The notes beneath the pieces were generated by a model. The model did not search any database. It saw nothing but the letters and a program-made list of their open reading frames with translations, and was not told where the DNA came from. This document shows, one piece after another, positions 34,032 to 49,980 of a stretch of DNA of 64,000 bases. Position numbers and translations under genes: made by a program. Numbering within the stretch: position 1 is the stretch's first letter; each line of letters begins with the position of its first letter. Where the stretch lies: contig CBDCGL010000011.1 of the NCBI GenBank assembly GCA_965216755.1, positions 2,528,001 through 2,592,000 on the forward strand, given 5' to 3'. Source of the DNA: Alphaproteobacteria bacterium. GTDB lineage: Bacteria; Pseudomonadota; Alphaproteobacteria; UBA7887.

Positions 34032-36074
34032 CTAGGCGCCAGTCGCGAGATTGTAGCTCCCATCCCAGTCCGAGGGCGGCGGATTTGCTGCGCGTTCCGC
34101 GGCACGCCGTGTCATGACCTGAGAGGGCCCGTCAATTTCTGCCAAAGCGCGCCACGCGCTTGCGGCACGCGCGAAATCGCCGGTCCGATAGATGTTGAGC
34201 GCGTTTTCATAGGCCGCCACGGTATGCCGCTGGGCGGCGGTCGCAGTCTCGTTATCGGCGATAATCTCAAATATCGTCAAGGGCGCGTCGATTCCCTTTA
34301 CCCGTACATGATCCAATTCACGCAACAAGAAATGATCGCGTATGGCGTCGGCCGTCGGCGCCCCGGCAACGACATTGCATCGATACAAGCCGGGCAGCGC
34401 TTCCAGCCGCGCCGCGACATTGACCATGGCGCCGATGGCCGTGTAGTTGAATCGCTTCTCATAACCGACATTGCCAACAATGGCATCGCCAGAGTGGATC
34501 GCGACTTTGATGCTGAAAGCATGTTCGCCGGCACGCTTGTCGCGTTCCTGCGTCACGGCCACTTGTTCGGTGATGCGCAGGGCCGCCGCCGCCGCGTCCA
34601 TGGCATGGTCGGCGTTCGGCAGCGGCGCGCCCCAAATCGCCATGACTGCGTCGCCGATGAACTTGTCGACATAGCCGTTCGCGCGATCGACTTCGCGGGC
34701 GACGATGCCGATATAGCGGTTGGTCAGTGCGACCAATTGGCTCGCCGGTATCCGCCGCGACAGTGCGGTGAATCCCGACAGATCGGCAAACATCACGGTC
34801 AAATCATGGTTCGCGCCCCCGAGCGTCAATGGCGTACCGCTATCGGCCAAGCGCGCGACCAAGACCGGCGAAAGATAGCGCCCGAAAGCCTGTTGCACGC
34901 GCCGGCGACGCCGATCTTCGAGCAAATAGCGGATCAAATAGGCGAGCGCCAGAGCGGCGGCAACCGCTATCATCGGGACCCCGGCCGGGAACCATATCTG
35001 CCAATCCAAAAGGACGATTTCACCCAGCCACAATCCGGCCAACGCCACCAGTCCGGCGGCGACCGCAAGCCACGGTACAAGCGTAAGACCAATGGTCGCA
35101 CCAATTGCCCCGGCCGCCGCGCCAATAGCGGCCCGCCATAGCGGCGCGATCAGTTCTGTGACGCGGCCGCGCAACACGGTATCGACGGCAACGGCATGCA
35201 AAAAAACGCCGGGCACGGCCGTACTGGCAAATCCCGGTCGCCAAGCACGCTGAGTGTCCCCATTGGATCGCGGCAAGAAACGGGCTGACGTGATCTTCTG
35301 GTCTTCCTCGGGCAGAGCACCACCGACAAAGACCACCTTGCCGGCAAATGCGTTGCGCAAGGTCTCGGGCGCCGACCGGCCCAACTGAAGAACATCGATC
35401 AGCGGAAAAGTCGGCAGTGATTCCGGGTGAAGATCGGGCGCGAGCAAGACCGGTGTCCGCCAGCGGTCATGTCCCAGGCGCGCCAACACCGCCCCCATGA
35501 GCGAGGCATACCAGTGCTCTTGCACTTCGAATCCTGCCGGTACCCAACGATAGACGCCGTCGTCGTCGGGCCGGACTTCGAGCAAGCCAAGCGCCGCCGG
35601 ATCGTTGCGCAAGGCCGCAATAAAGGGCGCTGCCGGGTTGGTCCGCACCGAACGGCCGAGGACCAAACGGTCCTTGTTCCGCGCCAACGCGGCGACAAAA
35701 TCGCGGTCAGCGTCGCGCTGGAAGGCGTTGCGCGAATAGGCGAGCAACATATCGAAGGCGACAACACGTGCGCCCGCATCGATCAATGTCGTAATCAGTT
35801 GCGCCCAATAGATTCCATAGAACGCACGCGGCCAGCGCGCCATTTCCGGATGTTCCAACGTGGTCGAATCGACAACCACGATCGCGACATCACTCTGCGA
35901 CCGATCTGCGCGTGCGGCACCGGTGGCGCTGTGCACAGCCAACGCGGTATCGAATAGCCAGCCGTCGACGACGGTCAAACCTTCAGATGTCAATGCGGCA
36001 AGGCCGGCAAGGCCCGCACAAAGAACCACGCTCGCGCGTATCACATATTTTCGGATGTTAGCGACCGGCCGCAC
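34032..36074 (-). CDS. CHASE2-domain membrane adenylate cyclase (class III)
   Basis: CHASE2 motifs RWPRAFY, VVAFDML, GKVVFVG and PGVFLHA; three TM helices; cyclase motifs VMFADLSGFT, DKFIGDAVM and YTAIGAMVNVAARLE. Confidence 0.92.
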   Translation of the reverse strand: MRPVANIRKYVIRASVVLCAGLAGLAALTSEGLTVVDGWLFDTALAVHSATGAARADRSQSDVAIVVVDSTTLEHPEMARWPRAFYGIYWAQLITTLIDAGARVVAFDMLLAYSRNAFQRDADRDFVAALARNKDRLVLGRSVRTNPAAPFIAALRNDPAALGLLEVRPDDDGVYRWVPAGFEVQEHWYASLMGAVLARLGHDRWRTPVLLAPDLHPESLPTFPLIDVLQLGRSAPETLRNAFAGKVVFVGGALPEEDQKITSARFLPRSNGDTQRAWRPGFASTAVPGVFLHAVAVDTVLRGRVTELIAPLWRAAIGAAAGAIGATIGLTLVPWLAVAAGLVALAGLWLGEIVLLDWQIWFPAGVPMIAVAAALALAYLIRYLLEDRRRRRVQQAFGRYLSPVLVARLADSGTPLTLGGANHDLTVMFADLSGFTALSRRIPASQLVALTNRYIGIVAREVDRANGYVDKFIGDAVMAIWGAPLPNADHAMDAAAAALRITEQVAVTQERDKRAGEHAFSIKVAIHSGDAIVGNVGYEKRFNYTAIGAMVNVAARLEALPGLYRCNVVAGAPTADAIRDHFLLRELDHVRVKGIDAPLTIFEIIADNETATAAQRHTVAAYENALNIYRTGDFARAASAWRALAEIDGPSQVMTRRAAERAANPPPSDWDGSYNLATGA

Positions 36075-36117
36075 GTCCCATCGCCGCTGCTAAGCTCTCT
36101 TCACCACGCTTTGTGGA

Positions 36118-36774
36118 TCAATCAATCCGGATCAATGTCATGGCCTTGCCCCGCGCCCGGGTCAAGACATCCAAATCGACCCGTCCCACACTTTCGCCGG
36201 ACATGGCCAAGAGTTCCAAAGTCAACGTGGCGTCGTCGCCGAGCTCTTCAATATCTTGCGGCCATGTGAACCGGCGGTCTTCGACCGCGCCTTCATAGAT
36301 AACGCGATCATCACGCAGCACGCGTGCCTGCGCCACGGCGCCGCCCTTGGATCCGGCCATGACCAACGTCGAAGCGCTGCCAAGGCGGACCTTCACAGCA
36401 TTGCCCAAATCGCGGACCAACACCCCGCCGATCCCCGTGCCTTCGGACAACGCGATGGTTTGCGGACAATCTGCGCGTCGAACATCGACAATTTGACCCT
36501 GCTGCACGGTGTAACTCTGCGCGCTGAAATGGAGGCGCCCGCCCGTGACCACGACTTCCTTGCAAGTTGGATAATGGAGAAACTCGACCGTACCCGCATC
36601 CGCCAGCTCAACGGCATCGCCTGGCCACAGTTCCGAGAACGGTTCGACCTCGGCGCCACTGGTCGCGTCCAATGCCAAGGCGACGGCCGAGTCGGCGTGG
36701 GCGCGCAATGTCGGCGCCACGACAACACAGAGGCTGGCCAATAACAACAAGCGCGTCATGCGGTAGCACGTCAT
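36118..36774 (-). CDS. Hypothetical exported protein, co-oriented directly upstream of the cyclase
   Basis: Signal peptide ending AHA-D; two Cys in the mature region; beta-rich; start may be 36759. Confidence 0.7.
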   Translation of the reverse strand: MTCYRMTRLLLLASLCVVVAPTLRAHADSAVALALDATSGAEVEPFSELWPGDAVELADAGTVEFLHYPTCKEVVVTGGRLHFSAQSYTVQQGQIVDVRRADCPQTIALSEGTGIGGVLVRDLGNAVKVRLGSASTLVMAGSKGGAVAQARVLRDDRVIYEGAVEDRRFTWPQDIEELGDDATLTLELLAMSGESVGRVDLDVLTRARGKAMTLIRID

Positions 36775-36905
36775 TTCAAATCTCTCGTTGCGCGATGATG
36801 GCGCAATTCACGTGGTTTCTATGGTTTCTATGGGGCGATTGTAGCTCGCCTCATCAGTTATGTCTTGGCGTGGCAGGTGCATCCACAACCGCCCGCGCCA
36901 CGCGT

Positions 36906-37091
36906 TCAGGCGTACAACTCGTCAATCTCCACGGCCGCGCCGCAATGGCGCCGGCGGTGTACCTCTTTAAGGACATCGCTGAGCATGTCCGACACGGCGT
37001 GAAGTTGGTCTTCATCACCTGTATCCAACGCCCAATCCATCAGCGTGGCCTGCGCGTCGTCAAGCATATCAAGCGCATAAGTTTGCATCAT
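36906..37091 (-). CDS. Small acidic hypothetical protein
   Basis: AGGGG RBS before ATGATG; helical, Asp-rich composition. Confidence 0.45.
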   Translation of the reverse strand: MMQTYALDMLDDAQATLMDWALDTGDEDQLHAVSDMLSDVLKEVHRRRHCGAAVEIDELYA

Positions 37092-37300
37092 TCGTCCCCT
37101 GGTGTTGGATGTTTCAATCTCGTGCATCAATGTTGATGCTCACCCATAGACACGATGGACGCGCCGACCAGGGGTTACGAATTGCGACAAACCGCGCGCC
37201 GTAGGCGCGAAAACGCCATCGGCGGCGTCGATAGACGCCGCCGTGACGTTGATGGGCCGGGGGAGGTTTTGGTAGCGGTCGTGTGCCGCTCGATCGGCGC

Positions 37301-37630
37301 CTACTTGGTCAGGACGTAAGACCCACCGCACGTCTTGCCGACCGTGCGATACATACGCCGGCGCAGATCCATCTCATCCGGCGGGCTCGCAGCGCCAGCA
37401 GCGGCCACAACGGGAACAGCGACGGCACCAGTCGCCACGCAACCGGCGCCTTTGAAAACTGCGTGAACAGGCGTGCCAACCACGTCGATCACGTTTCGGG
37501 CGGTCGCCGTCGCGGAAGAACCGGAATGCGGTCGGGCCGTCGGCACGCCGGCACGGGGGGAAACACTATCGTCATGGGCGCAAGCGGCGGTGGCCAGAAC
37601 AAGCGCCAGAAGCATGAGTTGTTTGCGCAT
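37301..37630 (-). CDS. Hypothetical small lipoprotein
   Basis: MRK-hydrophobic stretch-LATAAC lipobox; two further Cys. Confidence 0.65.
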   Translation of the reverse strand: MRKQLMLLALVLATAACAHDDSVSPRAGVPTARPHSGSSATATARNVIDVVGTPVHAVFKGAGCVATGAVAVPVVAAAGAASPPDEMDLRRRMYRTVGKTCGGSYVLTK

Positions 37631-37905
37631 GGGATGGGAACTCCGGTTTTCTTGATGGTTAACTCAGTCAGTCAAACGTTCGATGATGTACACGGGGCGG
37701 ATCGCGGTGTGGGGTTACGTTGACAGCAAATTCTCGCGATTCTTTTCGGATCCGGACTTAAACGAAATGGCTCCCGATGTTGCGCCCGATCACCCCGGCG
37801 CTGCCTTCGGCCGACACGAGCAATGTCGGACATTGCCACGACGGTCGGCCGAAGGTCGCTTCCCCGGGGACACGGGTCGGGCGATGCGACGAAGAAACGC
37901 GGAGA

Positions 37906-38283
37906 TTAGATCTCGCTTGCGGCCAAGGATTTGGCGACCCGCCGCTTCATGGTCTCGTAATGCTTGACCGGAAACTCAAAAATGCGCTGAAAGGCACAAC
38001 CGTTGGCATCAAACGGCACCATGATGGCTTGGCGGCGCCGTGGATCCGCGAACGTCACGATGCGCTCGACACCGTCCATTTTCGGATCTAGATACTGCAA
38101 AATGCCTTGCGTGATATCACCATTGAGAGGATCCGCCGGACGGACATGACGCCCAAACCAAAGTTTGAGGTTTTCCTGGACGACGAACGCATCGGCACAT
38201 CCGGTTTCACTTGCCGCCTCATCCGATAGCACAGCAACAGCACAGACAACGGCGGTCAATAATGTCAACAAACGTTTGGGCAT
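37906..38283 (-). CDS. Hypothetical exported protein
   Basis: CAGGAGG RBS; MPKR followed by a hydrophobic signal sequence. Confidence 0.6.
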   Translation of the reverse strand: MPKRLLTLLTAVVCAVAVLSDEAASETGCADAFVVQENLKLWFGRHVRPADPLNGDITQGILQYLDPKMDGVERIVTFADPRRRQAIMVPFDANGCAFQRIFEFPVKHYETMKRRVAKSLAASEI

Positions 38284-38417
38284 TGTAACCTCCTGCATGT
38301 CCCGGGGATTTGCGGCTTTGCGTGGGGTCGTCGTTGGCACCGCTTCTGCCTATAGACACGTAGAAAGCACAGGATAAGGGTTGCCAAAAATGTGCTGCGG
38401 GATGCGGATAAAAAGAT

Positions 38418-38442
38418 CCGGTGTGTGGAAACCACACACCGG
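38418..38442 (-). terminator. Probable rho-independent terminator of 38495-38683
   Basis: Perfect 11-bp stem CCGGTGTGTGG / CCACACACCGG followed by ATCTTTTT on the minus strand. Confidence 0.55.
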
Positions 38443-38494
38443 CTGAGTTCGACCATCAGGGAGGTATCGAGGAGGAAAAGCGTTGGAACGGGCG

Positions 38495-38683
38495 CTAGGC
38501 GGAAGCCGTTCGAAAAATGAAAGAATTTGTCATTTTGGCCATATCGGCGTGCTTGTTTTCGCCGGTCAGGTCCGAGATCGCCCGCCGCAAACCCGCGGCA
38601 TCATCGGCATAACCCGGTGCGTTGGTGAAAATCGCGAGGCCGATAAGGGCAACAATCGTGCGGATTTTCGAATTACGTGTCAT
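38495..38683 (-). CDS. Small secreted peptide (62 aa)
   Basis: Basic N-terminus, hydrophobic core, GYA-D cleavage-like site, downstream terminator. Confidence 0.5.
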   Translation of the reverse strand: MTRNSKIRTIVALIGLAIFTNAPGYADDAAGLRRAISDLTGENKHADMAKMTNSFIFRTASA

Positions 38684-38758
38684 GGTCGTGGCTCGCTGGC
38701 CTTATTGTTTTGCATCTTGGTTTTTTCTTGACCGTCGCCGCGGCACCTGGAGTTTTGG

Positions 38759-40126
38759 TTGCGTGCATGCGACGTTCGCCTGTTAACACGCCGGACGGTG
38801 CGCAATGGGGTGACCAGGACACGAAAAAATCTTGAACGGCGCCGCCATGGCGGCGCGGGCAATGGCGCGCGCGGCGCACCACGCCCGCTGGCCGGTGTGA
38901 TCTTGTTATGTTGCGTCTGTGTTATGGCGCTTGGACCTGCGGCGCTGGCGCAGCGTTCTCAGCAAGATCCAAACGCGTTCGCCGATGCCGAGGCGTTGGA
39001 AGGCGCCGCCCGTGACGGCGATCCACAGGCGCTGTTTACATTGGCCGATCAGTATGAGCAGGGCTTGGGCCGTGACTTTGATCTGACGGCGGCGGCACAC
39101 TACATGGAACTCGCGGCCGAACGTGGCCACCGTGCGGCACAGTATCGCATGGCGCTGATGCTGGCGCGGGGCGTTGGCGTGACCGCCGATACGCTCGAGG
39201 CGTATCGCTGGTGCCATTTGGTCGTCGGCGATGAGACCGATGGCGACGCGGCCCGAGACGATCGTGAGCCAGATACGATCGCCCTATTGGCGCGATCACT
39301 TTGCGCAACGTTGGCGGACACACTCTCCGTGGAGGATGTTCGCGCTGCCGAAGACCAAGCATCATCATTTGTCGCGGTCACTGGCCCCGTGCCGTCTGCG
39401 CAAGCGACGGCACAGGCGGCCGCCGACGACGATGTGGACGGCGATCCGGTGGCGCAGATTCTGGCACGGTTGCCGGCCGGGCAGTGCGGCGCCTACCAGA
39501 TCACCCAGGACGGCGACAACCGGTTTCAGCTTGCTGCGTATGCACCCAGCGCCGCGGCCAGAGACGCACTGGCGTCGGCATTTCGCGCCGAGACCGAAGC
39601 CAATGACGAGGCGATCAAAATCACGGTGCTGGCGCCCGTACTATGTGCCGTGATCGCGCTGATCGACCGACATCGGGCCACGGCACCCGTTTCCATTGGC
39701 ACCCTGTACAATGGGCGCGGGGAGGAAACCGACCTTTTCCAAGACGGCGACAGCGTCATTTTGGACATCTCACCGCGCGAGACGCCACACTATGTCGCCA
39801 TCGACTATTTGGTCGCCGATGGTGTCGCCGCGCGCCTGTATCCGCTTACATCCGAGAGTGAACACCTCCTGTCTGCCGGCGAACGACTGCGGCTGGGAGC
39901 CGAGGGGTCGCCATCAGGGGTGTGGGAGGTGGGGCCGCCATTTGGCTCTGACCTGTTGGTCATATTGGCGTCGCCCGACGCGCTGCAGCTTCGGATTCCG
40001 GCGCAAGACAGTGTCGCCGACTACACATCCACCCTTGAAAACGCGCTACGCGACAGCGGACCGAATGGGTCGTTGCTGATAGGCTATCGCGTGGTCACGA
40101 TCGAACCCGCTGGATCGACGCGATGA
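38759..40126 (+). CDS. Exported Sel1-repeat protein with a C-terminal DUF4384-like domain
   Basis: Sel1 motifs GDPQALFTLADQYEQGLG and GHRAAQYRMALMLARGVG; YVAIDYLVADG...LYP...WEVGPPFGSDLLVILAS; true start probably further downstream. Confidence 0.72.
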   Translation: MRACDVRLLTRRTVRNGVTRTRKNLERRRHGGAGNGARGAPRPLAGVILLCCVCVMALGPAALAQRSQQDPNAFADAEALEGAARDGDPQALFTLADQYEQGLGRDFDLTAAAHYMELAAERGHRAAQYRMALMLARGVGVTADTLEAYRWCHLVVGDETDGDAARDDREPDTIALLARSLCATLADTLSVEDVRAAEDQASSFVAVTGPVPSAQATAQAAADDDVDGDPVAQILARLPAGQCGAYQITQDGDNRFQLAAYAPSAAARDALASAFRAETEANDEAIKITVLAPVLCAVIALIDRHRATAPVSIGTLYNGRGEETDLFQDGDSVILDISPRETPHYVAIDYLVADGVAARLYPLTSESEHLLSAGERLRLGAEGSPSGVWEVGPPFGSDLLVILASPDALQLRIPAQDSVADYTSTLENALRDSGPNGSLLIGYRVVTIEPAGSTR

Positions 40127-41313
40127 GCCTGCTGAAGAACCCCTTTTTGTGGCAAGCCGTGGTCGCGCTGTTGTTTGTGCCCCTGCTGCTGACCATGGCG
40201 GCGCCGTTAGCCCCGGTCGCGCCCTTGATCGCGTTGGTGGCGGCCTGCTATGTGATCTGGCGTCTCACCCGCATCGGCGGCGTGGTACGACGGGCCGCTG
40301 CCGCCCTGGCGCCCGACCGCACGCCGCCGCGCGCACCCGCCATATCCGGCACGATCGCACCGCTCGAGCAAAGCGCCAAAATCGACCCCGATGACATGCG
40401 CCGCTATCTCAATGCCTGCGTCATCGGCCAGGACGTCGTCGCCGGACAACTGGCGCGCGGTATCTATCGTCGAATGGCCCAACAACAACGCAACAAACCG
40501 ATCTTTACGGCTTTGCTGAGCGGGCCCACCGGAACAGGCAAGACCGAAATCGCGAAAGCGGTCGCCCGTTATTTGTTTGGCAGCGTCAGCAGCATGTTTC
40601 GAGTCGACTGCGCCAATGTGCTCGGCGAAGCCGGCCTGCAAACTCTGATCGGATCGCCCAAGGGATTTGCCGGGTCCAGTTCGTGGGGATCGCTGACCGC
40701 CCATTTGCGGGCGATGCCACGCACTGTCCTGTTGTTCGACGAAATCGAAAAGGCGGTGCCTTCACCCACCGCACCGATGGCCAAATTGCTGTTGTCACTG
40801 CTCGATGAGGGCGTGTGTACCGAGCAAAGCGACGGCACCGCGGTCAGCGCAACCGAGGCGGTGATCCTGCTCACCTCGAACGCGGCGCAAAAGCGCCTTG
40901 GCCCCATATTCCAGCAATATCGGGACAAGCCCGAGGAGCTGGTCCGGGCCACCAAGGACACGCTTCAGGACCATTTTGCCCCCGAATTCCTGGCCCGTAT
41001 CGATCTGGTCACCACCCTGGCGCCGCTTGACGACCAGGCGCGCGGCAAGATCATCGCCATGCACGCCGGCCGCATCGGTGATTCCTATGGGGTCAGCATT
41101 GCCAGCGTCGACGCCTCCTTTGTCAACGAAGCCCTGCGTATCGCGAACAGTCTGGAAGACTACGGGACGCGTGAAATCATCCGTTGGGTCGAACAAGCCG
41201 TTGCCGACCAGTTGATCAAGGCGGCGGAAAGCGGCACCAAACGCGCCTCGCTCGCTTGGTTAGACGGCGCCGTGCGGGTCACACCGGTCAGCGACGCCGC
41301 CGAAACGCCGTGA
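40123..41313 (+). CDS. Membrane-anchored single-domain Clp/Hsp100-type AAA+ ATPase (ClpB D2-like)
   Basis: N-terminal ~40-aa hydrophobic segment; VIGQD, Walker A GPTGTGKTE, pore loop LIGSPKGFAG, Walker B LLFDEIEKA, sensor 1 LTSN, PEFLARID, sensor 2 YGTR. Confidence 0.88.
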   Translation: MSLLKNPFLWQAVVALLFVPLLLTMAAPLAPVAPLIALVAACYVIWRLTRIGGVVRRAAAALAPDRTPPRAPAISGTIAPLEQSAKIDPDDMRRYLNACVIGQDVVAGQLARGIYRRMAQQQRNKPIFTALLSGPTGTGKTEIAKAVARYLFGSVSSMFRVDCANVLGEAGLQTLIGSPKGFAGSSSWGSLTAHLRAMPRTVLLFDEIEKAVPSPTAPMAKLLLSLLDEGVCTEQSDGTAVSATEAVILLTSNAAQKRLGPIFQQYRDKPEELVRATKDTLQDHFAPEFLARIDLVTTLAPLDDQARGKIIAMHAGRIGDSYGVSIASVDASFVNEALRIANSLEDYGTREIIRWVEQAVADQLIKAAESGTKRASLAWLDGAVRVTPVSDAAETP

Positions 41314-41329
41314 TGACCCGCCCCCGGCC

Positions 41330-44300
41330 ATGACGGCACCGGCACCCAAGACCGGGCTTGGTGCCCGCCTTTCGTGGATTCTCCGCCACGACTGGCTGTT
41401 TGTTCCCGCCATGATTGTGACCCTGTATGGCGGTTATCTGTCGGTCACGGCGCCGCCCAATTGGCTGCAGCGTGTACCTGTCGCGGTCGATGATGTGGTC
41501 ACTGGCGCCCGACAGGACTTGACCGCGACCGTCGATGAACTTCAAGTGGCCAGCAACGAAGCGCGCCGCCTGTTTGACGATGCCAGCGCTGAATTCGCGC
41601 AGGAACGGGAGTCGCTGCAAGACGCGGTCGCATCGCGCGACACCGAAATCGACGCGCTCAACGAGTCCTTGGACGAGACGCGCGAGGCACTCGATCAACG
41701 CACCCAAACCTTGAATGAACGCGACGCGCGTTTGGCCGAATCGCGCGACTCGGTCGCCGCCTTGGAACAAGAAGCCACCGCAATCGCAAGCGAACGCGAC
41801 GACCTGCGTACGGCGCTGGATTTTGCCGAATCCGACCTGGCGCGCGCGCAGGACCGGGTTGCCGCTTTGCAGGCCGCGTTGGCCGAACGCGCCGCGTCCG
41901 TCGAATCGCTGACCAGCGAGGCCGCCAATGCCAGCACACAAACCGATGCCCTGCGCGACTCTCTGACCGGCGCGCAACGAGACCTTGACGCTGCCGAGCA
42001 ACGCGTCGTGGCCTTAGAGGAAGCTCTGGCCGATCGTGAGGCCAGCGTCACGCGACTCGAAGAACAGTTGACCGCGACAGCGGCCGAACGTCGCGAACTG
42101 GAAAGTGCACTGAGCGCCGCACAACAGGACGTCGCGGCGGCACGCGACCAAGCGGCTGTCTCAGACGCCCGAGTCGCGGAACAAGCCGCAGAAATCACCG
42201 CGGACCAGCAAGAGATCACCAGGCTCAACACGGCTTTGACGACCGCACGCGCGCAAACTGCCGCGACGGAACAGCAAATGGTCGAGGTGAACAGCGGTTT
42301 GGACGCTTTGCGCAACGAACGCGCGGCCTTGGCCGCGTCTGTCGACAGCCAAAGACAGCGCATCGCGACATTGACGTCAACGCTGGCCGACGCCGAAACC
42401 CAGCTCGGTCAAAGTGCCGCCCAGTTGGCGGCGCGCGACGCCACGATCGAGCAACTCAACCAGCAAATCAGATCCGCCCAATCGGCCTCCGACAGCCTGC
42501 GTGAAACGCTGTCCGACGTGACCACGGCCAGCGGCGAGACCCAAGGCCAAATCGCCACGCTCGGCGCCACGCTGGCGCAAACCCGGGCCGAACGGACCGC
42601 ATTGGCCACGGAGGTCGCGGCACAGCAAGCGCAAATCGAAACGCTCAATGCGGCGCTGGGAGACGCCCGAACTGCGTTGGAAAGCGGCACCGCGACGTTG
42701 GCCGAACGCGAAGCGGCGGTGGCGTCGTTGGAAGAGCAAATCGCGGCCGCGACGGCGGAACGGGCCCGTTTGGTCGCGTCGGTGCAAGAAGCCGAAGCGG
42801 CCGCTGCCGACGCGCGGGCACAGACGTCAGATCTTGAAGCCCGTTTGCAAGAACAGGCTGCCGCGATTGCCACGCAGGAACAACAGGTCACGATATTGCG
42901 CACCGACCTTGATGCCGCGCGCGAGGCGGCGACGGCCGCAACGGCCGATGCCGCTGCGCTGGCCACCGATCGCGACGCGTTGGTCGCGGAACGTGACCAA
43001 TTGGCCGAGGCGCGGACAGCCGAAGCCGACCGCATCACGACGCTGACAGCGTCACTGGCGGCGGCCCAAGCGGCACACGACGACACCCTCGCCACGCTTG
43101 CCGAACGGGAGGCGGCCGCCGAAATCGTCACAAGCCAGGTCGCCGAGGCCGCGCAACAACGCGCGCAATTGCAAGCCGCCCTGGCCGATGCGGAACAAGC
43201 GGCGGCCGCGGCGAGCAGGCGCGCGGCCGCGCTGGAGCAGCAAGTGCGCGATCAGGCCGGCGCCGACGCAGACGCGTCGCAGATCGCCGATTTGACAATC
43301 CGTCTGCGCGACGTGGAAAACGAACGCGATGCGGCGTTGGCATCCTTGGCCGAGGCGGAAGAAGGCGCCGCGGCCGCAACCAATCGCGTGGCCGAACTGC
43401 AGCGCCAAGCCCAAAATCAGGCCGCTGCCGATGCGTCAGAGATCGCTGACCTGGACGCCCGCCTGCAAGAGGTCGAAGACGCGCGCGAAGCCCTTTCCAC
43501 CGAATTGACCGAGCAACAGGCGATGGCGACATCGCTGACCGCGGCGCGTGAGACCGCCGAGGCAGCGCTCGTTGAGGCCAATCGTGAGACCGCGGAATTG
43601 ACCGAACGGCTGCAAGGCATTGACTCCGAACGTGCGACCTTGGCGGCGAACGTAACGTCCCAGCAACAGGAAATGGCGGCTTTGTCCGCGTCACTCGCCA
43701 ACGCCAAAGCGGACTTTGACGGGCAAACCATCGATTTGGCGGAACGCGACGAAACCATCGCGAAATTGACGGCCCGAGTGACCGACGCCGAAGCCGAGAC
43801 CGAACGCCTGTCGGCCGCGGTGGCCGATGGCCGCACCGCCCTGGCGGACAGGGAAACCGACTTGGCGGACGCCCGACGACAAGCCGACGCCGAGCGCGCC
43901 GAATTGGAGCAACTCGGCGACCGCTTGCGCCAATCGGAACGCGAATTGGCACGGCGCACCCGGCTGGCCGGAGCTTTGCAATCGGAAGTCATGCGCCTGA
44001 TGGGAGCCCTTGGCGCATCCCAGAAAGCCGCCGGCACCGGCGATGCGGAGTCGGGCACGGGGCCTGGACAGGCAGCGGCATCCGGTGGCGCCGGATCCGA
44101 CATCGGCAAATATCGGTCGGCGTTCTTCGCGTTGCTCAGCGCGGTGGTTGGTACACGCAGCGATGTGCGCACGGTCGGCGATCGTTTTGTGTTTCCGTCA
44201 GAGGTCTTCTTTCCATCGGGTTCGGCGATCCTTGGCCCCGAAGGCCGCGCGGAATTGGACAAGGTCGCCGATGCGCTATTGGAAATTGCACGCAACATTC

Positions 44301-44557
44301 CGCCGGAAACATCGTGGGTGTTGCGGGTCGACGGTCATACCGACCGGCGCCCCATTCAGACCTCGGAATTTCCGTCGAATTGGGAGCTGTCGACAGCCCG
44401 GGCGCTGTCTGTGGTGCGCTATTTGATCGAACGCGGGATCCCGCCCGACCGCTTGGCCGCGTCGGGATTCGGCGAGTTTCACCCAATCGATCCTGGCCAG
44501 TCCGGAGACGCCTTTCGCCGCAATCGGCGTATAGAACTAAAACTCACCACACGCTGA
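41330..44557 (+). CDS. Single-TM giant coiled-coil protein with a C-terminal OmpA/MotB-like peptidoglycan-binding domain
   Basis: TM near aa 22-40; ~830 aa of Ala/Glu/Gln-rich heptads; GDRFVFPSEVFF, VDGHTD, NWELSTARA and NRRIELK. Confidence 0.88.
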   Translation: MTAPAPKTGLGARLSWILRHDWLFVPAMIVTLYGGYLSVTAPPNWLQRVPVAVDDVVTGARQDLTATVDELQVASNEARRLFDDASAEFAQERESLQDAVASRDTEIDALNESLDETREALDQRTQTLNERDARLAESRDSVAALEQEATAIASERDDLRTALDFAESDLARAQDRVAALQAALAERAASVESLTSEAANASTQTDALRDSLTGAQRDLDAAEQRVVALEEALADREASVTRLEEQLTATAAERRELESALSAAQQDVAAARDQAAVSDARVAEQAAEITADQQEITRLNTALTTARAQTAATEQQMVEVNSGLDALRNERAALAASVDSQRQRIATLTSTLADAETQLGQSAAQLAARDATIEQLNQQIRSAQSASDSLRETLSDVTTASGETQGQIATLGATLAQTRAERTALATEVAAQQAQIETLNAALGDARTALESGTATLAEREAAVASLEEQIAAATAERARLVASVQEAEAAAADARAQTSDLEARLQEQAAAIATQEQQVTILRTDLDAAREAATAATADAAALATDRDALVAERDQLAEARTAEADRITTLTASLAAAQAAHDDTLATLAEREAAAEIVTSQVAEAAQQRAQLQAALADAEQAAAAASRRAAALEQQVRDQAGADADASQIADLTIRLRDVENERDAALASLAEAEEGAAAATNRVAELQRQAQNQAAADASEIADLDARLQEVEDAREALSTELTEQQAMATSLTAARETAEAALVEANRETAELTERLQGIDSERATLAANVTSQQQEMAALSASLANAKADFDGQTIDLAERDETIAKLTARVTDAEAETERLSAAVADGRTALADRETDLADARRQADAERAELEQLGDRLRQSERELARRTRLAGALQSEVMRLMGALGASQKAAGTGDAESGTGPGQAAASGGAGSDIGKYRSAFFALLSAVVGTRSDVRTVGDRFVFPSEVFFPSGSAILGPEGRAELDKVADALLEIARNIPPETSWVLRVDGHTDRRPIQTSEFPSNWELSTARALSVVRYLIERGIPPDRLAASGFGEFHPIDPGQSGDAFRRNRRIELKLTTR

Positions 44558-44571
44558 TCAATAACGGCACC

Positions 44572-44611
44572 GGACCGTGGCGGCCATGTCTGATACCGGC
44601 CGCCACGGTCC
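44572..44611. terminator. Hairpin between convergent genes
   Basis: 14-bp stem GGACCGTGGCGGCC / GGCCGCCACGGTCC with a 12-nt loop. Confidence 0.55.
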
Positions 44612-44669
44612 CGTCTCGTGAAATAGCCCGGACCCTTTTGCCATGAACCCGGTCTATCTCGGCGTGAAT

Positions 44670-45275
44670 TCAGCCGCCGAGATTGATGATCTTGACCCGT
44701 CGATTGGCCCCTGAGGCCGGATCGGCACTGTCATACAGCTCCGATTCGCCTTTGCCGACCGTCACCAGGCGGACATGGTCGACAGCGTGCCGTGAGATCA
44801 GATAATTCTGAACCGACAGCGCGCGTTTTTCGGACAAGCTCTGGTTGTAGCTGTCAGAGCCCACGGCGTCCGTGTGGCCTTCGATCACAAACTTAAACGC
44901 ACCGAGATCGTCAGAATTGAGCGCCGCGGCCAAGTTATCCAGCGTGGCCATGCCATCCGGCGTCAACTCCGCAGAGTCGAACCCGAACTCGATCCGCACC
45001 GAGGCGGCGGGACTCAATTGCTCGGGTTGAGCCTGTGTCGCCGCTGTTTGCGGCATCGTTTCCGGATCGGCGTTCGGATCCGGTCGACGTTGAATGCCAC
45101 GCGTGCGGAACATTGGCTGCGGCTTGAGCGCTTGGATGAAATCATCAACGCTGGCGCCATCTTCCAAATAAGCGCTGGCGTCATCAGCTAAGACACCCTG
45201 ATTTGGGCCAAAAACAGCGACGAGCGCCGCGGTCACGGCCACCACGGTTAAACTGCGCATTACGTTCATCGTCAC
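44670..45275 (-). CDS. Exported OmpA-family (C-terminal domain) protein
   Basis: Signal peptide; IEFGFDSAEL, IEGHTDAVG, YNQSLSEKRA and NRRVKI. Confidence 0.9.
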   Translation of the reverse strand: MTMNVMRSLTVVAVTAALVAVFGPNQGVLADDASAYLEDGASVDDFIQALKPQPMFRTRGIQRRPDPNADPETMPQTAATQAQPEQLSPAASVRIEFGFDSAELTPDGMATLDNLAAALNSDDLGAFKFVIEGHTDAVGSDSYNQSLSEKRALSVQNYLISRHAVDHVRLVTVGKGESELYDSADPASGANRRVKIINLGG

Positions 45276-45520
45276 CCCTCTGTCAGGCTTCTTTCGTTAT
45301 TATAACGGGTGTCGGCACTATTGCAGACACCTTAGTCTAACACGCAACAGGACTGGGTGAGGGGTTTGTGGACCAGGGCCGGTGTGCGATGAAATTAAAG
45401 GGTGTTGCATTTTTGCGCCTCGATAAAACGTAGCAACAAGTGAACACGTGAAAAAATCGCGCTTTGTAACTGGAAAGCAAAGGGTTAGCCTTACGAACCA
45501 GAATAGACATTGATCGAATT

Positions 45521-46507
45521 ATGAAGCGCATCGCATTCATTACTGGCTTGCTGCTCTATGCGGCGCCGGCGCTAGCCGACGTGTCGGAAGCGCTGACGGC
45601 GTATCGGCGCGGCGACTACGCGACGGCGATCACCGAATTCACCGTGGCCGCGCAAGCCGGCGATCCTGTTGCACAGTTCAATTTGGCTGTGATTCACCAT
45701 AAGGGCGTCGGCACGTCGCCGGACCCGGCATTGGCCAGCGAATGGTACCGGGCCGCCGGTCTGCAGGGCTTGCAGCAAGCCCAGATTGAATTAGGTCGCA
45801 TGTATGCCACCGGCGCAGGCGCCTTTTGGAACGCCGAAGCCGCCGAGATCTGGTACCGTGCGGCGGCAAAACATGGTGACTCAACCGCGCAGTACCAACT
45901 TGGCGAGATGTACTACAGAGGCGACGGGGTTCAGAAGGACGGCGCCGAAGCCGCCAACTGGTTGCGCTTGGCCGTTGAGCAAAACCATGTGCGCGCGCAA
46001 TTCCTTTTGGGATACCTGCACGCTGCCGGAGTCGGCGTCGCGCAAAGCGATGAATTGGCGGCGAAGTATTATCGCATGGCCGCCGAGGCGGGATATCCGC
46101 CGGCGCAGTTGAATTTGGCCTTCATGTATTCCCATGGCAAGGGCGTGCCGCGCGATTTCAACGAAGCCACGAAATGGAATCGGCGCGCCGCGCGGCAAGG
46201 TTATGCCGGCGCGCAAGGCATTGATATTATTGAACGCAGCAATGTGGACGGGGTGCCACAGAGCTTCGTGGATGCCTATGCGTGGTGGCACATGGCCGCG
46301 GTCCACGGCAACCCCTTAGGGACCAGCTATCGCGACACCCTAAATACGCTGCTAACGCCCGAGGAAGTAACCGAAGCGATCGCTCTGTTTGACCAACTGA
46401 TGAGCGAAGCCAAGGTCGCCGGCAGCAGTCGGGCGACACCGCCCCGCGAGCGTTCGAACATGGTCAACAACCGGCCTGATTTGGCCATTCAAACGTCGGC
46501 AAAATAA
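45521..46507 (+). CDS. Exported Sel1-repeat protein
   Basis: Signal peptide ending ALA-D; about five AQxxLGxxYxxGxGV repeats. Confidence 0.9.
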   Translation: MKRIAFITGLLLYAAPALADVSEALTAYRRGDYATAITEFTVAAQAGDPVAQFNLAVIHHKGVGTSPDPALASEWYRAAGLQGLQQAQIELGRMYATGAGAFWNAEAAEIWYRAAAKHGDSTAQYQLGEMYYRGDGVQKDGAEAANWLRLAVEQNHVRAQFLLGYLHAAGVGVAQSDELAAKYYRMAAEAGYPPAQLNLAFMYSHGKGVPRDFNEATKWNRRAARQGYAGAQGIDIIERSNVDGVPQSFVDAYAWWHMAAVHGNPLGTSYRDTLNTLLTPEEVTEAIALFDQLMSEAKVAGSSRATPPRERSNMVNNRPDLAIQTSAK

Positions 46508-46821
46508 TCGTCGGCGATCACAAATTCGTCACCCCTCCTCCGTCACCGCCACGTGTCTACCGTTAGCAGGTTCTGCGTCTCCCGTGTCGCGCCCCGCGGT
46601 TTGGGTTCGATCTGCCGGCAACAATGCCGCGCAATCAATCCGTTGCCGCGCCACGTGCGCGTGCGCGCAGACCAGATCGACATGCCGCGCCGGACCCGTG
46701 CCGGAACATGGCAGTCGACATAATGAAGCAGGAAAGGAACGACGGGACGTGGCATGATGATTTCGCGAGCGTTAGGATTATTGCCCGCTGGTCGATGCCG
46801 CACATTGATTTGGAGGAAGCC

Positions 46822-49800
46822 ATGACTGTCGAAGCCTATGAGACGCATCCGCGTCGGTTTGGACCGCGTCGGTTTGCGACTTTGTCGGCACGCTGGGGTC
46901 TGTTCGCGGCCCTTTGCCTTGCGATGCCGGGTCTGGTTGTATCGGCGACCAGCAGCCCACATGGAGACTGGTTTATCCGGCCGGCAGCCGCCGCGACCAA
47001 CGTCGCCGATAAGTTCACCGTGGTCGATTGCGTACTGCCCGGGCAAGTGCGCAAGTTGGGTCGCCGGACAACCTATTTGACCGCCCGTCGGGCCACCAAA
47101 ACGTCGATCTTGGACTGCGAAATCCGTGGCGGCGAGTATGTCGCCTATGACCGTGCTTCGTATCAGACGGCCCTGAATGTATGGATGGACGAGGCCGGCG
47201 CGGGCGATCCGCAAGCCCAGCTTTACGTTGGCGAGATCTACGAGAAAGGCCTCGGCGTGGCGCCCGATTACGACCTCGCCGCGGTCTGGTACAAAAAGGC
47301 GGCCGAACAAGGCCTGGCGCCGGCTCAAGTCAATCTCGGCAATCTCTATGAAAAAGGTCTCGGCGTGCCCAAGGATCCGGACACTGCCCTGGCGTGGTAT
47401 CGCCGCGCGTCCGGATTACCGGATGTCGGCCTCGACTATATGCCGTTTGGTGACTTTGCTCAGCAGGTCGAAGGGTTGCGCCAAGAACTGGCGTCACGCA
47501 CCGAACAGCTAGAGCTGCGCACAGAGGAATTGGCGCAACGGACCCAGGAGGTCGAGCAGTTGCGAGGGTCCCTGGGTCAAGCGCAGCGCAGCCTGCATGA
47601 AACGACCCGTCAGTTATCGGCAAGCCAAAAAGCCGCCAGTGCCAAGCAAGCCGAATTGGCCGCGGAGCAGCAAGCCCTAGCCGCGGAACGCGCCGCCCTG
47701 ACCGCCTCGACCGAAGCCGTGAAGACCGAACGCGCCCGCCTGGAAGCGGCGCTGCAGAACGCCGGCGGTACCGACCCGGCGGAACTGCAAGCCTTGCAAG
47801 CGCGGCTTCAAGAGAGCGAACAAAACGTCGCGAAGCACCGCCAAGCCCTTGAAATCCGCAACCAACAAGTGACCCAGCTGAACAGCGAAGTCACCCAACG
47901 GAACCAAGAAATTGCCGCGTTGCAGACGGTCGCGGACAGCAAGGACGCGGAGTTCGCCGCGCTCAAACAAGAGCTCAGTGAGGGCAGCTCAGGCGCCGTT
48001 GCGTTGCGCCAACAGCTGGACCGTCGTGAGGCTGAACTGAAACAACTGACCGCCAAGCTCAGCGGCACCCAAACCGAACTGGAGACCACCAAGAACGCGT
48101 TGGCCGCGCGTACGTCCGAGGCCACCGCCCAGCGGCAACAGTTGGACAGTGTGCGCAGCGAACTTGAGGCGCAACAAAAAGCGCTCGACGCACTCAAAGC
48201 CCAGCAAGACGGTTTGGTCGACAAAGAAGAAGCCGACTCGGCCCGCAACACTTTACAAATGCAACTGCAAGACCGCGCCGATGCCTATATCCAAGCGGAG
48301 GCCGAGGTCGCCCGGCTCAACAGCGCCCTTGCCGACAGCCAGGGCGAGGTGGCGCAACTGCAAAACCAAGTCAACCAACTCGCGGTGCAAGCGACCAACC
48401 AGCGCGAGCAATTGGCCTCCGCGGAACTGGCGGTAGAATCCTCGTCGGCCACCGAAGACGCACTCAAGCAAGAGGTTGAGCGACGCGCCGCCGAGGTCGG
48501 AAGCCTGAACCAGCAATTGGCGGAACTTGCCGACACGTTGCAGCAGAAGTCCGCGCAACTGGCACGACGGGAAGCCGATTCGGAACTTGCCAGCAATCAG
48601 TTGGCCGCCGCGCAACAGGAGCTATCGGATACACGCACGGCGCTCGAAGCGCTGCAATCGGATACCACCGCCAATACGGCCGACTTGAACCAGCGGATCC
48701 AAGCATTGACCGCGCAATACCAAGCGGGACAGGAGAAAGCCGCGCAGCTCGACGCCGAGTTGGCGGATAGTCGCTCGGAGATCGGCCGCCTTGAGTCGCA
48801 ATTGGCCAACCTCGAGGTCACCGCCAATAGCCAGGAACAGGAACTGGTCACGGCAGAGCAGCAGTTTGTTGACGCCGGCCCGATCATCGAACTGATCGAC
48901 CCGGCATTGCTGGTCACGCCCGAAGGGCGCACCATCGCGCGTACGCGCGGCGGCATCGAAAGTCGCGTGCTCATCGGGCGGGTCACCGCACCATCTGGCC
49001 TGTTGACCCTGACCATCAACGACGTCGAACAGCAGTTCGACGAGCAAGGCCTGTTTCGGGCCAGCTTGCCGGTCATCGGCGCCACCACCGGCGTCACGAT
49101 TAGCGCGGTCGATAGCAACGGCTATCGCAGCGCGTTGGACTTCTCTCTTGAGCTCGACGGCTCTGGCGAGATTGCCGCGCCGCCAACACCAGAGGTCAAG
49201 ACCCCCAGTCAACCGCCGCTGGTGCCGATTGCCGATGTCAAGTTCGGCAATTACTACGCGCTGGTCATCGGTAGCAACGACTACGCGCACCTGCCTGATC
49301 TGGAGACCGCGATTACCGACGCCCGCGCCGTTTCGCAGGTGTTGCGGGACAAGTACGGCTTTATCGTGACCACGCTGGAAAACGCAACCCGTTACGACAT
49401 TCTGTCGGCGATGAACGAATTCCGCGAGACGCTAACGGAAGAAGACAACTTCCTGCTCTATTACGCGGGTCATGGTGAGCTCGACCGCGTCAATCAACGC
49501 GGCCACTGGCTGCCCATCGATGCCGAGCCGGACAGCACCGCCAATTGGATCTCCAACGTGGCGATCGCCGACATCCTCAACGCGATGAACGCCAAGCATG
49601 TCTTGGTGGTGGCGGATTCGTGCTATTCCGGCGCCCTGACACGCACCGCTTTGGCGCGCCTCAACACCGGCATGACGCAAGAGCAACTGACCCAGTGGCT
49701 CAAGGTGATGGTGCAAAAACGCGCCCGTCTGGCGTTGACGTCGGGTGGCTTGCAGCCTGTCTATGACAGCTTCGGCGGCGATCATTCGGTATTCGCTAAC

Positions 49801-49980
49801 GCGATCTTGGGCGTATTGAATGACAATGGCGAAGTGTTGGGCGGTCAGCGTTTGTTTGAAGAGGTCGCGGCGCGAGTCAATTTCGTCGCCCAGTCATACG
49901 GCCTTGAACAATTGCCGCAATATTCGCCGATCCGGTTTGCCGGCCATGAATCCGGCGACTTCTTTTTCGTGCCGCTCTAA
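46822..49980 (+). CDS. Exported Sel1 + coiled-coil + caspase-family (peptidase C14) protein
   Basis: GGAGG RBS; N-terminal hydrophobic segment; two Sel1 repeats; ~470-aa coiled coil; ALVIGSNDY and catalytic dyad YAGHG / ADSCYSG. Confidence 0.9.
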   Translation: MTVEAYETHPRRFGPRRFATLSARWGLFAALCLAMPGLVVSATSSPHGDWFIRPAAAATNVADKFTVVDCVLPGQVRKLGRRTTYLTARRATKTSILDCEIRGGEYVAYDRASYQTALNVWMDEAGAGDPQAQLYVGEIYEKGLGVAPDYDLAAVWYKKAAEQGLAPAQVNLGNLYEKGLGVPKDPDTALAWYRRASGLPDVGLDYMPFGDFAQQVEGLRQELASRTEQLELRTEELAQRTQEVEQLRGSLGQAQRSLHETTRQLSASQKAASAKQAELAAEQQALAAERAALTASTEAVKTERARLEAALQNAGGTDPAELQALQARLQESEQNVAKHRQALEIRNQQVTQLNSEVTQRNQEIAALQTVADSKDAEFAALKQELSEGSSGAVALRQQLDRREAELKQLTAKLSGTQTELETTKNALAARTSEATAQRQQLDSVRSELEAQQKALDALKAQQDGLVDKEEADSARNTLQMQLQDRADAYIQAEAEVARLNSALADSQGEVAQLQNQVNQLAVQATNQREQLASAELAVESSSATEDALKQEVERRAAEVGSLNQQLAELADTLQQKSAQLARREADSELASNQLAAAQQELSDTRTALEALQSDTTANTADLNQRIQALTAQYQAGQEKAAQLDAELADSRSEIGRLESQLANLEVTANSQEQELVTAEQQFVDAGPIIELIDPALLVTPEGRTIARTRGGIESRVLIGRVTAPSGLLTLTINDVEQQFDEQGLFRASLPVIGATTGVTISAVDSNGYRSALDFSLELDGSGEIAAPPTPEVKTPSQPPLVPIADVKFGNYYALVIGSNDYAHLPDLETAITDARAVSQVLRDKYGFIVTTLENATRYDILSAMNEFRETLTEEDNFLLYYAGHGELDRVNQRGHWLPIDAEPDSTANWISNVAIADILNAMNAKHVLVVADSCYSGALTRTALARLNTGMTQEQLTQWLKVMVQKRARLALTSGGLQPVYDSFGGDHSVFANAILGVLNDNGEVLGGQRLFEEVAARVNFVAQSYGLEQLPQYSPIRFAGHESGDFFFVPL

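Follow-up and report, generated by a model that had tools for sequence, protein, structure and literature searches.

What does a Clp-type ATPase do when it has one ring, carries a predicted membrane anchor and is encoded in an operon with a giant wall-binding rod? This question is raised by three adjacent genes in a 64,000-nucleotide stretch of the genome of an Alphaproteobacteria bacterium (GenBank assembly GCA_965216755.1, contig CBDCGL010000011.1, positions 2,528,001 to 2,592,000, referred to here as the window). Clp/Hsp100 unfoldases are textbook soluble machines. The middle gene, designated ORF2, is identified here with high confidence as encoding a membrane-tethered, single-ring ATPase of the type found in the second nucleotide-binding domain (NBD2) of ClpB. 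As to what it does, we propose, tentatively and with somewhat less in favor of the whole statement than against it, that the protein forms a membrane-tethered hexameric ring that would pull on the tails of membrane proteins, and that the N-terminal tail of the rod encoded by ORF3 is the best candidate client. The operon consists of the following features, the first three taken from the list of open reading frames.

38759-40126, plus strand: ORF1 (P0001), predicted envelope protein with Sel1 and DUF4384 domains, maximal frame of 455 aa
40123-41313, plus strand: ORF2 (P0002), single-ring ClpB-NBD2-type AAA+ ATPase, predicted to be membrane-anchored, 396 aa
41330-44557, plus strand: ORF3 (P0003), anchor, proline-free helical rod of about 860 residues and OmpA-like peptidoglycan-binding domain, 1075 aa
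44572-44611, no strand assigned: perfect 14-bp inverted repeat with a 12-nt loop, 14 bases past the ORF3 stop, read from the sequence

An initial annotation of this DNA had described three same-strand genes joined by a 4-bp overlap and a 16-bp gap, and these coordinates were confirmed on the sequence. At the ORF1/ORF2 junction, CGATGAGC, the ATG of ORF2 at 40123 overlaps the TGA of ORF1 that ends at 40126, so that the two genes share the 4 bp ATGA (40123-40126); ORF3 follows ORF2 after 16 bp (41314-41329). ORF1 starts with TTG, and ORF2 and ORF3 start with ATG. The GC content at third codon positions (GC3) is 0.68, 0.76 and 0.71 for ORF1, ORF2 and ORF3, in line with the other genes of the window. 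The inverted repeat, which likely marks the end of the operon, sits between ORF3 and a convergent OmpA gene (44670-45275, minus strand). Upstream, a small minus-strand ORF (38495-38683) is divergent from the operon, and a strong terminator-like hairpin with a T-run is found beyond its end at 38418-38442. Because of the tight junctions, the downstream inverted repeat and the divergent upstream ORF with its terminator-like hairpin, the three genes look like one transcription unit with a promoter within 38684-38900. Promoter-like sites were not enriched (4 found versus 2.6 expected from shuffled sequence), and an Rfam search of 36000-46700 returned no match.

The identity of the ORF2 protein was assessed by profile, alignment and fold comparisons. 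Pfam AAA_2 (PF07724) matched ORF2 with 106.9 bits against a cut-off of 27. The NCBIfam ClpB profile aligned to it at positions 559-829 of 853 only, a coverage from which the N-domain, D1 and M-domain are all missing, and the ClpV, ClpA and ClpG profiles of NCBIfam were likewise matched in their last third only. Four features were located within the gene.

40138-40269, plus strand: two-helix hydrophobic hairpin, residues 6-49, with a short loop at about residues 26-33 (Kyte-Doolittle hydropathy, AlphaFold2 model, family alignments)
40336-40350, plus strand: linker motif P72-x-I74-x-G76, each residue kept in at least 95% of 62 close members, within a variable linker modeled at low confidence
40495-41007, plus strand: AAA_2 core, residues 125-295, with Walker A and B, sensor-1 and R292 (Pfam, alignments)
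40651-40674, plus strand: pore loop GSPKGFAG, residues 177-184 (alignments)

Alignment to the Thermus thermophilus ClpB NBD2 and to a 32-sequence family identified the motifs GPTGTGKT, LLFDEIEKA and TSN, and R292 within PEFLARID, which we take, from what is known of ClpB and other Clp ATPases, to be Walker A, Walker B, sensor-1 and the arginine finger; the name pore loop is assigned on the same footing. This loop reads GSPKGFAG in ORF2 versus GAPPGYVG in ClpB, and the family consensus is G-S-P-K-G-[YF]-A-G. The Walker A residues G134, P135, G137, G139, K140 and T141, the sensor-1 residues T251, S252 and N253, and R292 do not vary among the 32 sequences. At least 90% of these keep the Walker B pair D206/E207 and also R350, which lies beyond the region aligned to the T. 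thermophilus domain. The closest solved structure by sequence was the ClpB NBD2 construct 4lj4 (E 5e-33), followed by ClpC, Hsp104, ClpE and human CLPB/Skd3. An AlphaFold2 model of ORF2, built with 32 homologues, had a mean predicted local distance difference test (pLDDT) score of 89.8 and showed an AAA+ fold followed by a small C-terminal subdomain, with helices at residues 7-25 and 33-61 and low confidence at residues ~62-88. In a Foldseek comparison with the PDB, ClpC and ClpB NBD2 came out on top (4lj7_B and 4fd2_A, target-normalised TM-score of 0.83), and Skd3 (7ttr) also matched.

Arginines R47, R50, R56 and R57 come after the hairpin, and P34, at the start of its second helix, is also kept in at least 95% of the 62 close family members. 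The membrane topology was assigned on hydropathy alone. The PxIxG motif in the linker has the look of a site for docking or for contact between subunits. In partners of the ClpX/ClpA/ClpC type, docking to ClpP uses a surface-loop tripeptide such as IGF, IGL or VGF. No [ILVM]G[FL] tripeptide was found in the 396 aa of ORF2, nor is there an inserted loop there relative to ClpB NBD2, and because both are missing, nothing in its sequence suggests ClpP docking. Together these comparisons bore out what the initial annotation had read in the protein, namely the motifs of the second ClpB ring including an aromatic pore loop (GFAG versus GYVG), the loss of the N-domain, D1 and M-domain, and a hydrophobic N-terminal hairpin followed by basic residues.

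Comparison with known systems placed ORF2 nearest to the NBD2 of ClpB/Hsp104, which is its best sequence match, is among its top folds, and shares with it the Walker motifs, sensor-1, the PEFLxRxD arginine, a pore loop of the form G-x-P-x-G-aromatic-x-G, the small C-terminal subdomain and the lack of a ClpP-docking tripeptide. In contrast to ClpB/Hsp104, ORF2 is a single ring without N-domain, D1 and M-domain, to which a membrane hairpin and a linker with a conserved motif are joined; because of the missing domains, it has no obvious Hsp70 coupling site. Its scores lie below the equivalog cut-offs for ClpB (TIGR03346, 140 versus 1232 bits) and ClpV (TIGR03345, 133.8 versus 885 bits). Human CLPB/Skd3 and the torsins have a single NBD2-like ring after a hydrophobic N-terminal segment, as ORF2 does, and Skd3 7ttr is a match by fold. 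ORF2, however, lacks the ankyrin repeats of Skd3, and its score with the Torsin profile (PF06309) is 19.6 bits, below the cut-off of 27. Torsins have no aromatic pore loops and reside in the lumen of the endoplasmic reticulum, whereas the ORF2 ring is predicted to be cytoplasmic.

FtsH and Msp1/ATAD1 resemble ORF2 in a possible working mode, with an N-terminal anchor, a flexible linker, a cytoplasmic ring and aromatic pore loops. These proteins belong to the classical AAA clade (PF00004) whereas ORF2 is of the AAA_2 type, and ORF2 is not a member of their family; it gave no Peptidase_M41 match, the protease of FtsH, and ends after the NBD2 small subdomain. ClpB-like single AAA_2 proteins are also known as DolB of the Dodola defense system and as PDC-M37B in PADLOC (profiles of 375 and 390 positions), but with these the AAA core alone aligns to ORF2 and no partner protein was detected among the neighbors. 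The DolB match (E 7.5e-15) covers the AAA core only, with no DolA among the 11 neighborhood proteins scanned, and the PDC-M37B match (E 3.1e-27) covers profile positions 136-298 of 390, with no other PDC-M37 model matching the neighbors. By these defining features ORF2 is classed as an AAA_2/NBD2-type module and not as ClpB, ClpV, ClpX/A/C, torsin, FtsH or DolB, and in predicted design it resembles an FtsH without the protease, Msp1 or Skd3. In a search of the full-text literature, with subscription journals outside its coverage, neither a bacterial membrane-anchored single-ring ClpB-like ATPase nor this operon was found described, and nothing relevant was found on PDC-M37.

The breadth of the family was assessed with a word-indexed search of 5.8 billion clusters, in which 8000 candidates were scored with ORF2 as the query and 690 proteins reached E<=0.001. 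Among the best 77 matches (P0004-P0080), 61 are of 380-405 aa, with 51-71% identity and the hairpin in common. Few close homologues bear names, which are AAA family ATPase (in metagenome-assembled genomes of Geminicoccaceae) or, as assigned by JGI, ClpA/ClpC. In the 32-sequence alignment the N-terminal hairpin is visible in 31 members, down to 37% identity (P0117 being the exception), and four members of ~500 aa carry ~100 extra hydrophobic residues. An exhaustive phmmer search of 1.84 billion representatives returned 20,060 proteins at E<=0.001 and 193 at E<=1e-30. Among the 141 representatives listed from it (P0123-P0263), 72 have a single Walker A motif and a length under 560 aa, and half of these (36/72) carry a hydrophobic segment at the N-terminus. 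The ESM Atlas lists similar clusters, of 340-457 aa and with AAA_2, from Pseudomonadota, Elusimicrobiota, Planctomycetota, Verrucomicrobiota and Bacillota, and the names given to them are all generic.

In a FastTree phylogeny of 114 D2 domains, a branch with support of 94 separated the single-domain forms (71 of 73 on one side) from the multi-domain forms (38 of 41 on the other), and P0002 fell within a 28-row group with support of 99. A quick IQ-TREE analysis of 65 rows, drawn by random sampling after 8 long-branch rows were dropped, did not reject the single-domain forms as one group (approximately unbiased test, p-AU 0.18). The sampled sequences are the best matches to P0002 and the root is arbitrary; the trees show an old and diversified stand-alone D2-like set and not a rooted history. 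A Pfam scan of 23 related ATPases, giants and multi-ring forms included, found no fusion to OmpA or Sel1. In a profile search of genome contigs, no orthologue was found among the 80 loci listed (29-39% identity), 69 of which are full-length ClpB/ClpC of at least 750 aa; the shorter frames mostly end at a contig edge, and one (L034) is a frameshifted gene. A tblastn search of plasmids with P0002, P0123 and P0167 likewise found no orthologue, the best match being 34-37% identical and one hit (H58) being a 946-aa protein. We conclude that ORF2 is a member of a conserved family of single-ring NBD2-type AAA+ ATPases that are predicted to be tethered to the inner membrane.

Two further relatives were observed. 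A 34%-identical homologue with the same two-helix hairpin is encoded on a plasmid of Microvirga sp. VF16 (7647-8939 of the locus examined, L081), and its linker motif, LLDRYTNKD, resembles that of a family subgroup. Similar single-domain proteins of uncultured phages, such as A0A6J5MDF8, were also found by Foldseek.

The protein encoded by ORF3 had been described as a peptidoglycan-binding coiled-coil giant, and its OmpA domain, its PRK09039-type module and its proline-free stretch agree with that description. Its regions are as follows.

41330-41512, plus strand: residues 1-61, a 21-residue tail (predicted cytoplasmic) with invariant D21, a weakly hydrophobic anchor and a PPxWLxRxP...G motif
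44207-44527, plus strand: OmpA domain, residues 960-1066 (Pfam, 62.9 bits), within a PRK09039-type C-terminal module at residues 771-1075

No proline occurs between residues 50 and 912, a stretch in which Ala makes up 26% and Glu, Leu, Arg, Gln and Thr are abundant. By our own estimate of 0.15 nm per residue, the fully extended rod would be far longer than the width of the periplasm, so that it has to double back or run along the wall. No notable tandem repeats were found in its DNA, and self-BLAST found no internal protein repeats at E<=1e-3. The NCBIfam entry PRK09039.1-2 ("peptidoglycan -binding protein") matched residues 771-1075, which carry the C-terminal coiled-coil and OmpA module of that alphaproteobacterial family, with 259.1 bits, under the curated cut-off of 305 (NF006543); the alignment is convincing and has YRSEFF...VGDRFVF...DGHTD...NRRIELKLT in common.

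Relatives of the rod were sought with ORF3 residues 880-1075, and the best 120 matches were listed (P0264-P0383, ~590-800 aa). Their N-termini fall into 99 with a MotB-type plug (WPG[FWY]VD), 14 of the P0003 type and 7 others. Three of these 7 have a MotA/ExbB-like channel fused in front (blastp E 2e-83, 1e-60 and 2e-32 to the MotA-like protein of Sinorhizobium meliloti), and three or four have signal peptides. In S. meliloti itself, 3 bp separate the end of a MotA/TolQ/ExbB gene from the start of the PRK09039 gene downstream, whose 342-aa product has the plug at its beginning. Upstream of ORF3, in contrast, is an AAA+ ATPase gene and not a MotA-like channel; the MotB plug is missing from ORF3 as it is from its 14 related matches among the 120 listed, and no MotA/ExbB-type channel gene was found among the window ORFs scanned with Pfam. 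ORF3 is also much longer, at 1075 aa versus 342 aa in S. meliloti and 603-783 aa for the P0003-type rods among the 120 listed. The 15 P0003-type sequences have D21, A27, P42, P43, W45, R48, P50 and G59 invariant. When the first 80 residues were compared by hhalign with those of 100 plug-type proteins, the probability was 2% and there was no similarity. The P0003-type anchors are less hydrophobic (1.56-2.23 versus 2.45-3.41 in 7 sampled plug-type proteins), the best 19-residue value of ORF3 itself being 1.56. One wall-binding coiled-coil module is therefore found with at least three different membrane anchors, and ORF3 is of a subtype that has lost the MotA-compatible plug and has an unrelated, conserved anchor in its place.

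Two side observations concern the rod family. In S. meliloti (L082, 4316-6453), a Sel1-repeat gene is located two genes upstream of the MotA-like/PRK09039 pair. P0003 was not returned by the search with its own C-terminal region, although P0002 and ORF1 are in the collection; it may be missing there or called differently.

ORF1 had been described as Sel1/DUF4384-like, and both Pfam domains are indeed above their cut-offs (Sel1, 34.8 bits versus 30.7; DUF4384, 32.3 bits versus 27). The following features were found in its maximal frame.

38873-38956, plus strand: signal-peptide-like or anchor segment, residues 39-66, ending ALA-Q (hydropathy 2.45)
39134-39217, plus strand: best stretch of the Sel1 repeat, residues 126-153 (Pfam)
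39605-39670, plus strand: second hydrophobic segment, residues 283-304, followed by DRHR (hydropathy 2.21)
39737-39976, plus strand: DUF4384 domain, residues 327-406 (Pfam)

The 455-aa maximal frame runs from the TTG, and the version in the protein collection is of 400 aa and starts at M56 (38924). A start at M56 cuts into the signal-peptide-like segment, and an in-frame GTG is present at 38810; we think that the true start is upstream of M56, for example at this GTG, and that the protein is exported or anchored. Segment 283-304, from its hydropathy, may span the membrane as a helix, in which case DUF4384 would be cytoplasmic and next to the ATPase ring. No orthologue of ORF1 was found in the 5.8 billion clusters, which returned only ORF1 itself and three Sel1-only matches, and the ESM Atlas gave nothing usable. 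Over 71 aa, the Sel1 part of ORF1 has 37% identity to that of the product of a nearby caspase gene (P0388). Because there is no orthologue and because of this Sel1/DUF4384 kinship, ORF1 looks like a local, lineage-specific addition whose domain vocabulary is common to the neighboring Sel1/coiled-coil/caspase gene. DUF4384 often accompanies cyanobacterial orthocaspases as an accessory domain, with 23 proteins in Table 1 (PMC8283722), and is also mentioned for orthocaspases (PMC7475262); Sel1 and CHASE2 are likewise given there as accessory domains of these proteins (PMC7475262, PMC8283722).

Taken together, the predicted architecture of ORF2 suggests how it might work. The two-helix hairpin would tether the ATPase at the inner membrane, and a flexible linker of ~40 residues with the conserved PxIxG would join it to a cytoplasmic, ClpB-like ring with Tyr/Phe pore loops and no ClpP-docking tripeptide. 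The ring, presumably a hexamer, would grip the cytoplasmic tails of membrane proteins with its pore loops, and ATP would drive their pulling, threading, unfolding or extraction, in the manner of an FtsH without the protease or of Msp1. The ATPase probably engages such tails, and within the operon the N-terminal tail of the giant would be the best candidate client; a pull on it could remodel, dislodge or extract a wall-anchored envelope tether. A link between ORF2 and ORF3 is favored by the tight operon, with its 4-bp overlap and 16-bp gap, and by a predicted inner-membrane location common to the partners. The rod, moreover, has lost its usual partner interface, and its gene follows that of a different, putative energy-using membrane protein. 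Clients of FtsH require some 20 residues of free cytoplasmic tail, and Msp1 is likewise an extractor of membrane proteins; the conserved 21-residue tail and marginal anchor of the rod would be, by analogy, features of the kind used by such AAA+ machines. The initial annotation had envisaged an ATP-driven trans-envelope device, and a plug swap in a MotB-like, normally channel-paired family fits that idea.

Several observations weigh against a partnership of this kind. We infer the action of the ATPase on the giant from adjacency in one genome, and the same adjacency is the basis for proposing contact between the three proteins. As ORF1 has no orthologue in the 5.8 billion clusters, the three-gene set is not a conserved unit, and the Microvirga plasmid homologue (34%) is located among hypothetical and transposase genes with no OmpA neighbor. 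When the longest contigs of the best 120 ATPase matches and of the best 120 rod matches were compared, the sole shared size was 2592 bp (P0085 and P0342), which is too short for both proteins; this was a weak, by-eye test with one contig per cluster. The ATPase family also looks larger (61 near-full-length close matches) than the set of P0003-type rods (14 of the 120 listed), so that most of these ATPases may work without such a rod. The periplasmic loop of the hairpin has only ~8 residues, and contact with the rod would therefore need to be intramembrane or by way of the 21-residue tail. The predicted topology, finally, comes from hydropathy. One part of the overall interpretation given in the initial annotation, that of a genuine, conserved, membrane-anchored, D2-only Clp ATPase, stands; an action on the giant would be a proposal drawn from co-transcription in one genome, the Sel1/DUF4384 protein has no orthologue and the Microvirga homologue no OmpA neighbor.

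The genes around the operon bear on the alternatives. The surroundings are those of an ordinary chromosome, with genes for a peptide ABC transporter, aminopeptidase N, biotin-type functions, the glycine cleavage system and DsbD, and no mobile-element genes were seen in the window. The convergent gene at 44670-45275 (minus strand) encodes a secreted OmpA-like protein, similar to PA1041/YiaD, and a secreted protein with five Sel1 repeats is encoded at 45521-46507 (plus strand), between the operon and the caspase gene. The latter (46624-49980, plus strand) has a maximal ORF of 1118 aa with a likely start near M67. Its product combines a signal or anchor segment with two Sel1 repeats, a coiled coil of ~450 residues (~280-740), a beta-rich stretch and a Peptidase_C14 caspase domain in which the His (YYAGHG) and Cys (ADSCYSG) are intact; the NCBIfam model caspase_w_EACC1 matched it at 1e-19, below its cut-off. 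A caspase-like protease that is predicted to be exported or envelope-located is unusual. Its resemblance to ORF3 goes no further than coiled-coil composition (26-28% identity, heavily gapped). An 11-kb span includes three proteins with Sel1, two with OmpA and two with a giant coiled coil. On the other side of the operon, a 2-kb stretch contains three small minus-strand ORFs with signal-peptide-like N-termini and no Pfam match (37301-37630, 37906-38283 and 38495-38683). Beyond it are a CHASE2 sensor fused to a class III nucleotide cyclase (34032-36074, minus strand; PADLOC PycC models, 7e-30) and a FeeM-like N-acyl amino acid synthase fused to a cyclic-nucleotide (cNMP)-binding domain (32120-33259, minus strand). 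The CHASE2 cyclase and the FeeM-like/cNMP protein could form a local cyclic-nucleotide circuit beside the envelope genes.

The alternative that survives best is that ORF2 is a general quality-control unfoldase or disaggregase for membrane proteins, comparable to Msp1 or to FtsH without its protease, which would serve many clients and for which the adjacent rod would be incidental or merely co-regulated. We consider this possible, if doubtful. It would account for the conservation and size of the family, set against an orphan ORF1 and a less common rod subtype, and it is consistent with the unrelated neighbors of the Microvirga homologue, with the predicted membrane anchor in 36 of the 72 stand-alone D2-like representatives and with the look-alike clusters in several phyla. 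It leaves aside the tight coupling of the genes (a 4-bp overlap and a 16-bp gap), and it does not explain a rod that lacks the MotB plug and has no MotA-like partner gene among the window ORFs scanned.

A second alternative, which we regard as unlikely, is that the ATPase is an assembly or export helper that keeps the giant envelope proteins with coiled coils (ORF3, perhaps also the 1118-aa caspase protein) unfolded or disentangled around Sec-dependent insertion. Rings of the ClpB type are disaggregases, two very long helical proteins, poor in proline and anchored at the N-terminus, are encoded within 9 kb, and the anchor of the rod is weakly hydrophobic. No link was seen between the ATPase and Sec components, however, and the rod orthologues of 603-783 aa are much shorter.

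Quite unlikely, in our view, is a role of the operon in a conflict or defense island, in which the ClpB-like ATPase would act with the nearby caspase-like protease and CHASE2 nucleotide cyclase. The PADLOC matches that point in this direction (PDC-M37B at 3.1e-27 and DolB at 7.5e-15) are confined to the AAA core (residues 90-258), and the partner models of those systems found no match in the 11 neighbors scanned. The cyclase does match PycC models at 7e-30, but the caspase domain, which matches caspase_w_EACC1 at 1e-19, reaches only 70.8 bits against a cut-off of 140. DUF4384, Sel1 and CHASE2 accompany cyanobacterial orthocaspases (PMC7475262, PMC8283722); the proteins at this locus are predicted to be envelope-located, and they are surrounded by housekeeping genes (ABC transport, biotin, glycine cleavage, DsbD) in a window with no mobile-element gene seen. 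The weakest alternative, a decaying clpB or clpV fragment, which the initial annotation had named as the finding that would overturn it and which the presence of the second ring alone might suggest, was ruled out and is next to impossible, as length and hairpin are kept in homologues of 37-71% identity, the catalytic residues are all kept, GC3 is 0.76, and single-domain forms group apart from multi-domain ones.

A bolder version of the proposal that the ATPase pulls on the rod would make the operon an ATP-driven counterpart of the proton-driven MotAB/ExbBD/TolQR envelope energisers. A MotB-derived, wall-anchored rod would have swapped its channel plug for an anchor with a short cytoplasmic tail, and the membrane-tethered ClpB-like ring would be its new engine, pulling the tail and passing force or a signal across the envelope, with the Sel1/DUF4384 protein as a lineage-specific sensor or adaptor. 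This version is a long shot.

These results point to a broad, conserved set of bacterial membrane-tethered, one-ring Clp relatives that has been annotated merely as "AAA family ATPase". Proteins of the ORF2 type would be bacterial counterparts, in design, of Msp1, of an FtsH without its protease, or of Skd3. For the rod, it means that one of at least three anchors of a peptidoglycan-binding module sits beside such an ATPase. If the ATPase and the rod do cooperate, this would be the first case in which an AAA+ motor has taken the place of a proton-driven, stator-like unit of the cell envelope, and it would offer a testable way into the function of the widespread PRK09039 family.

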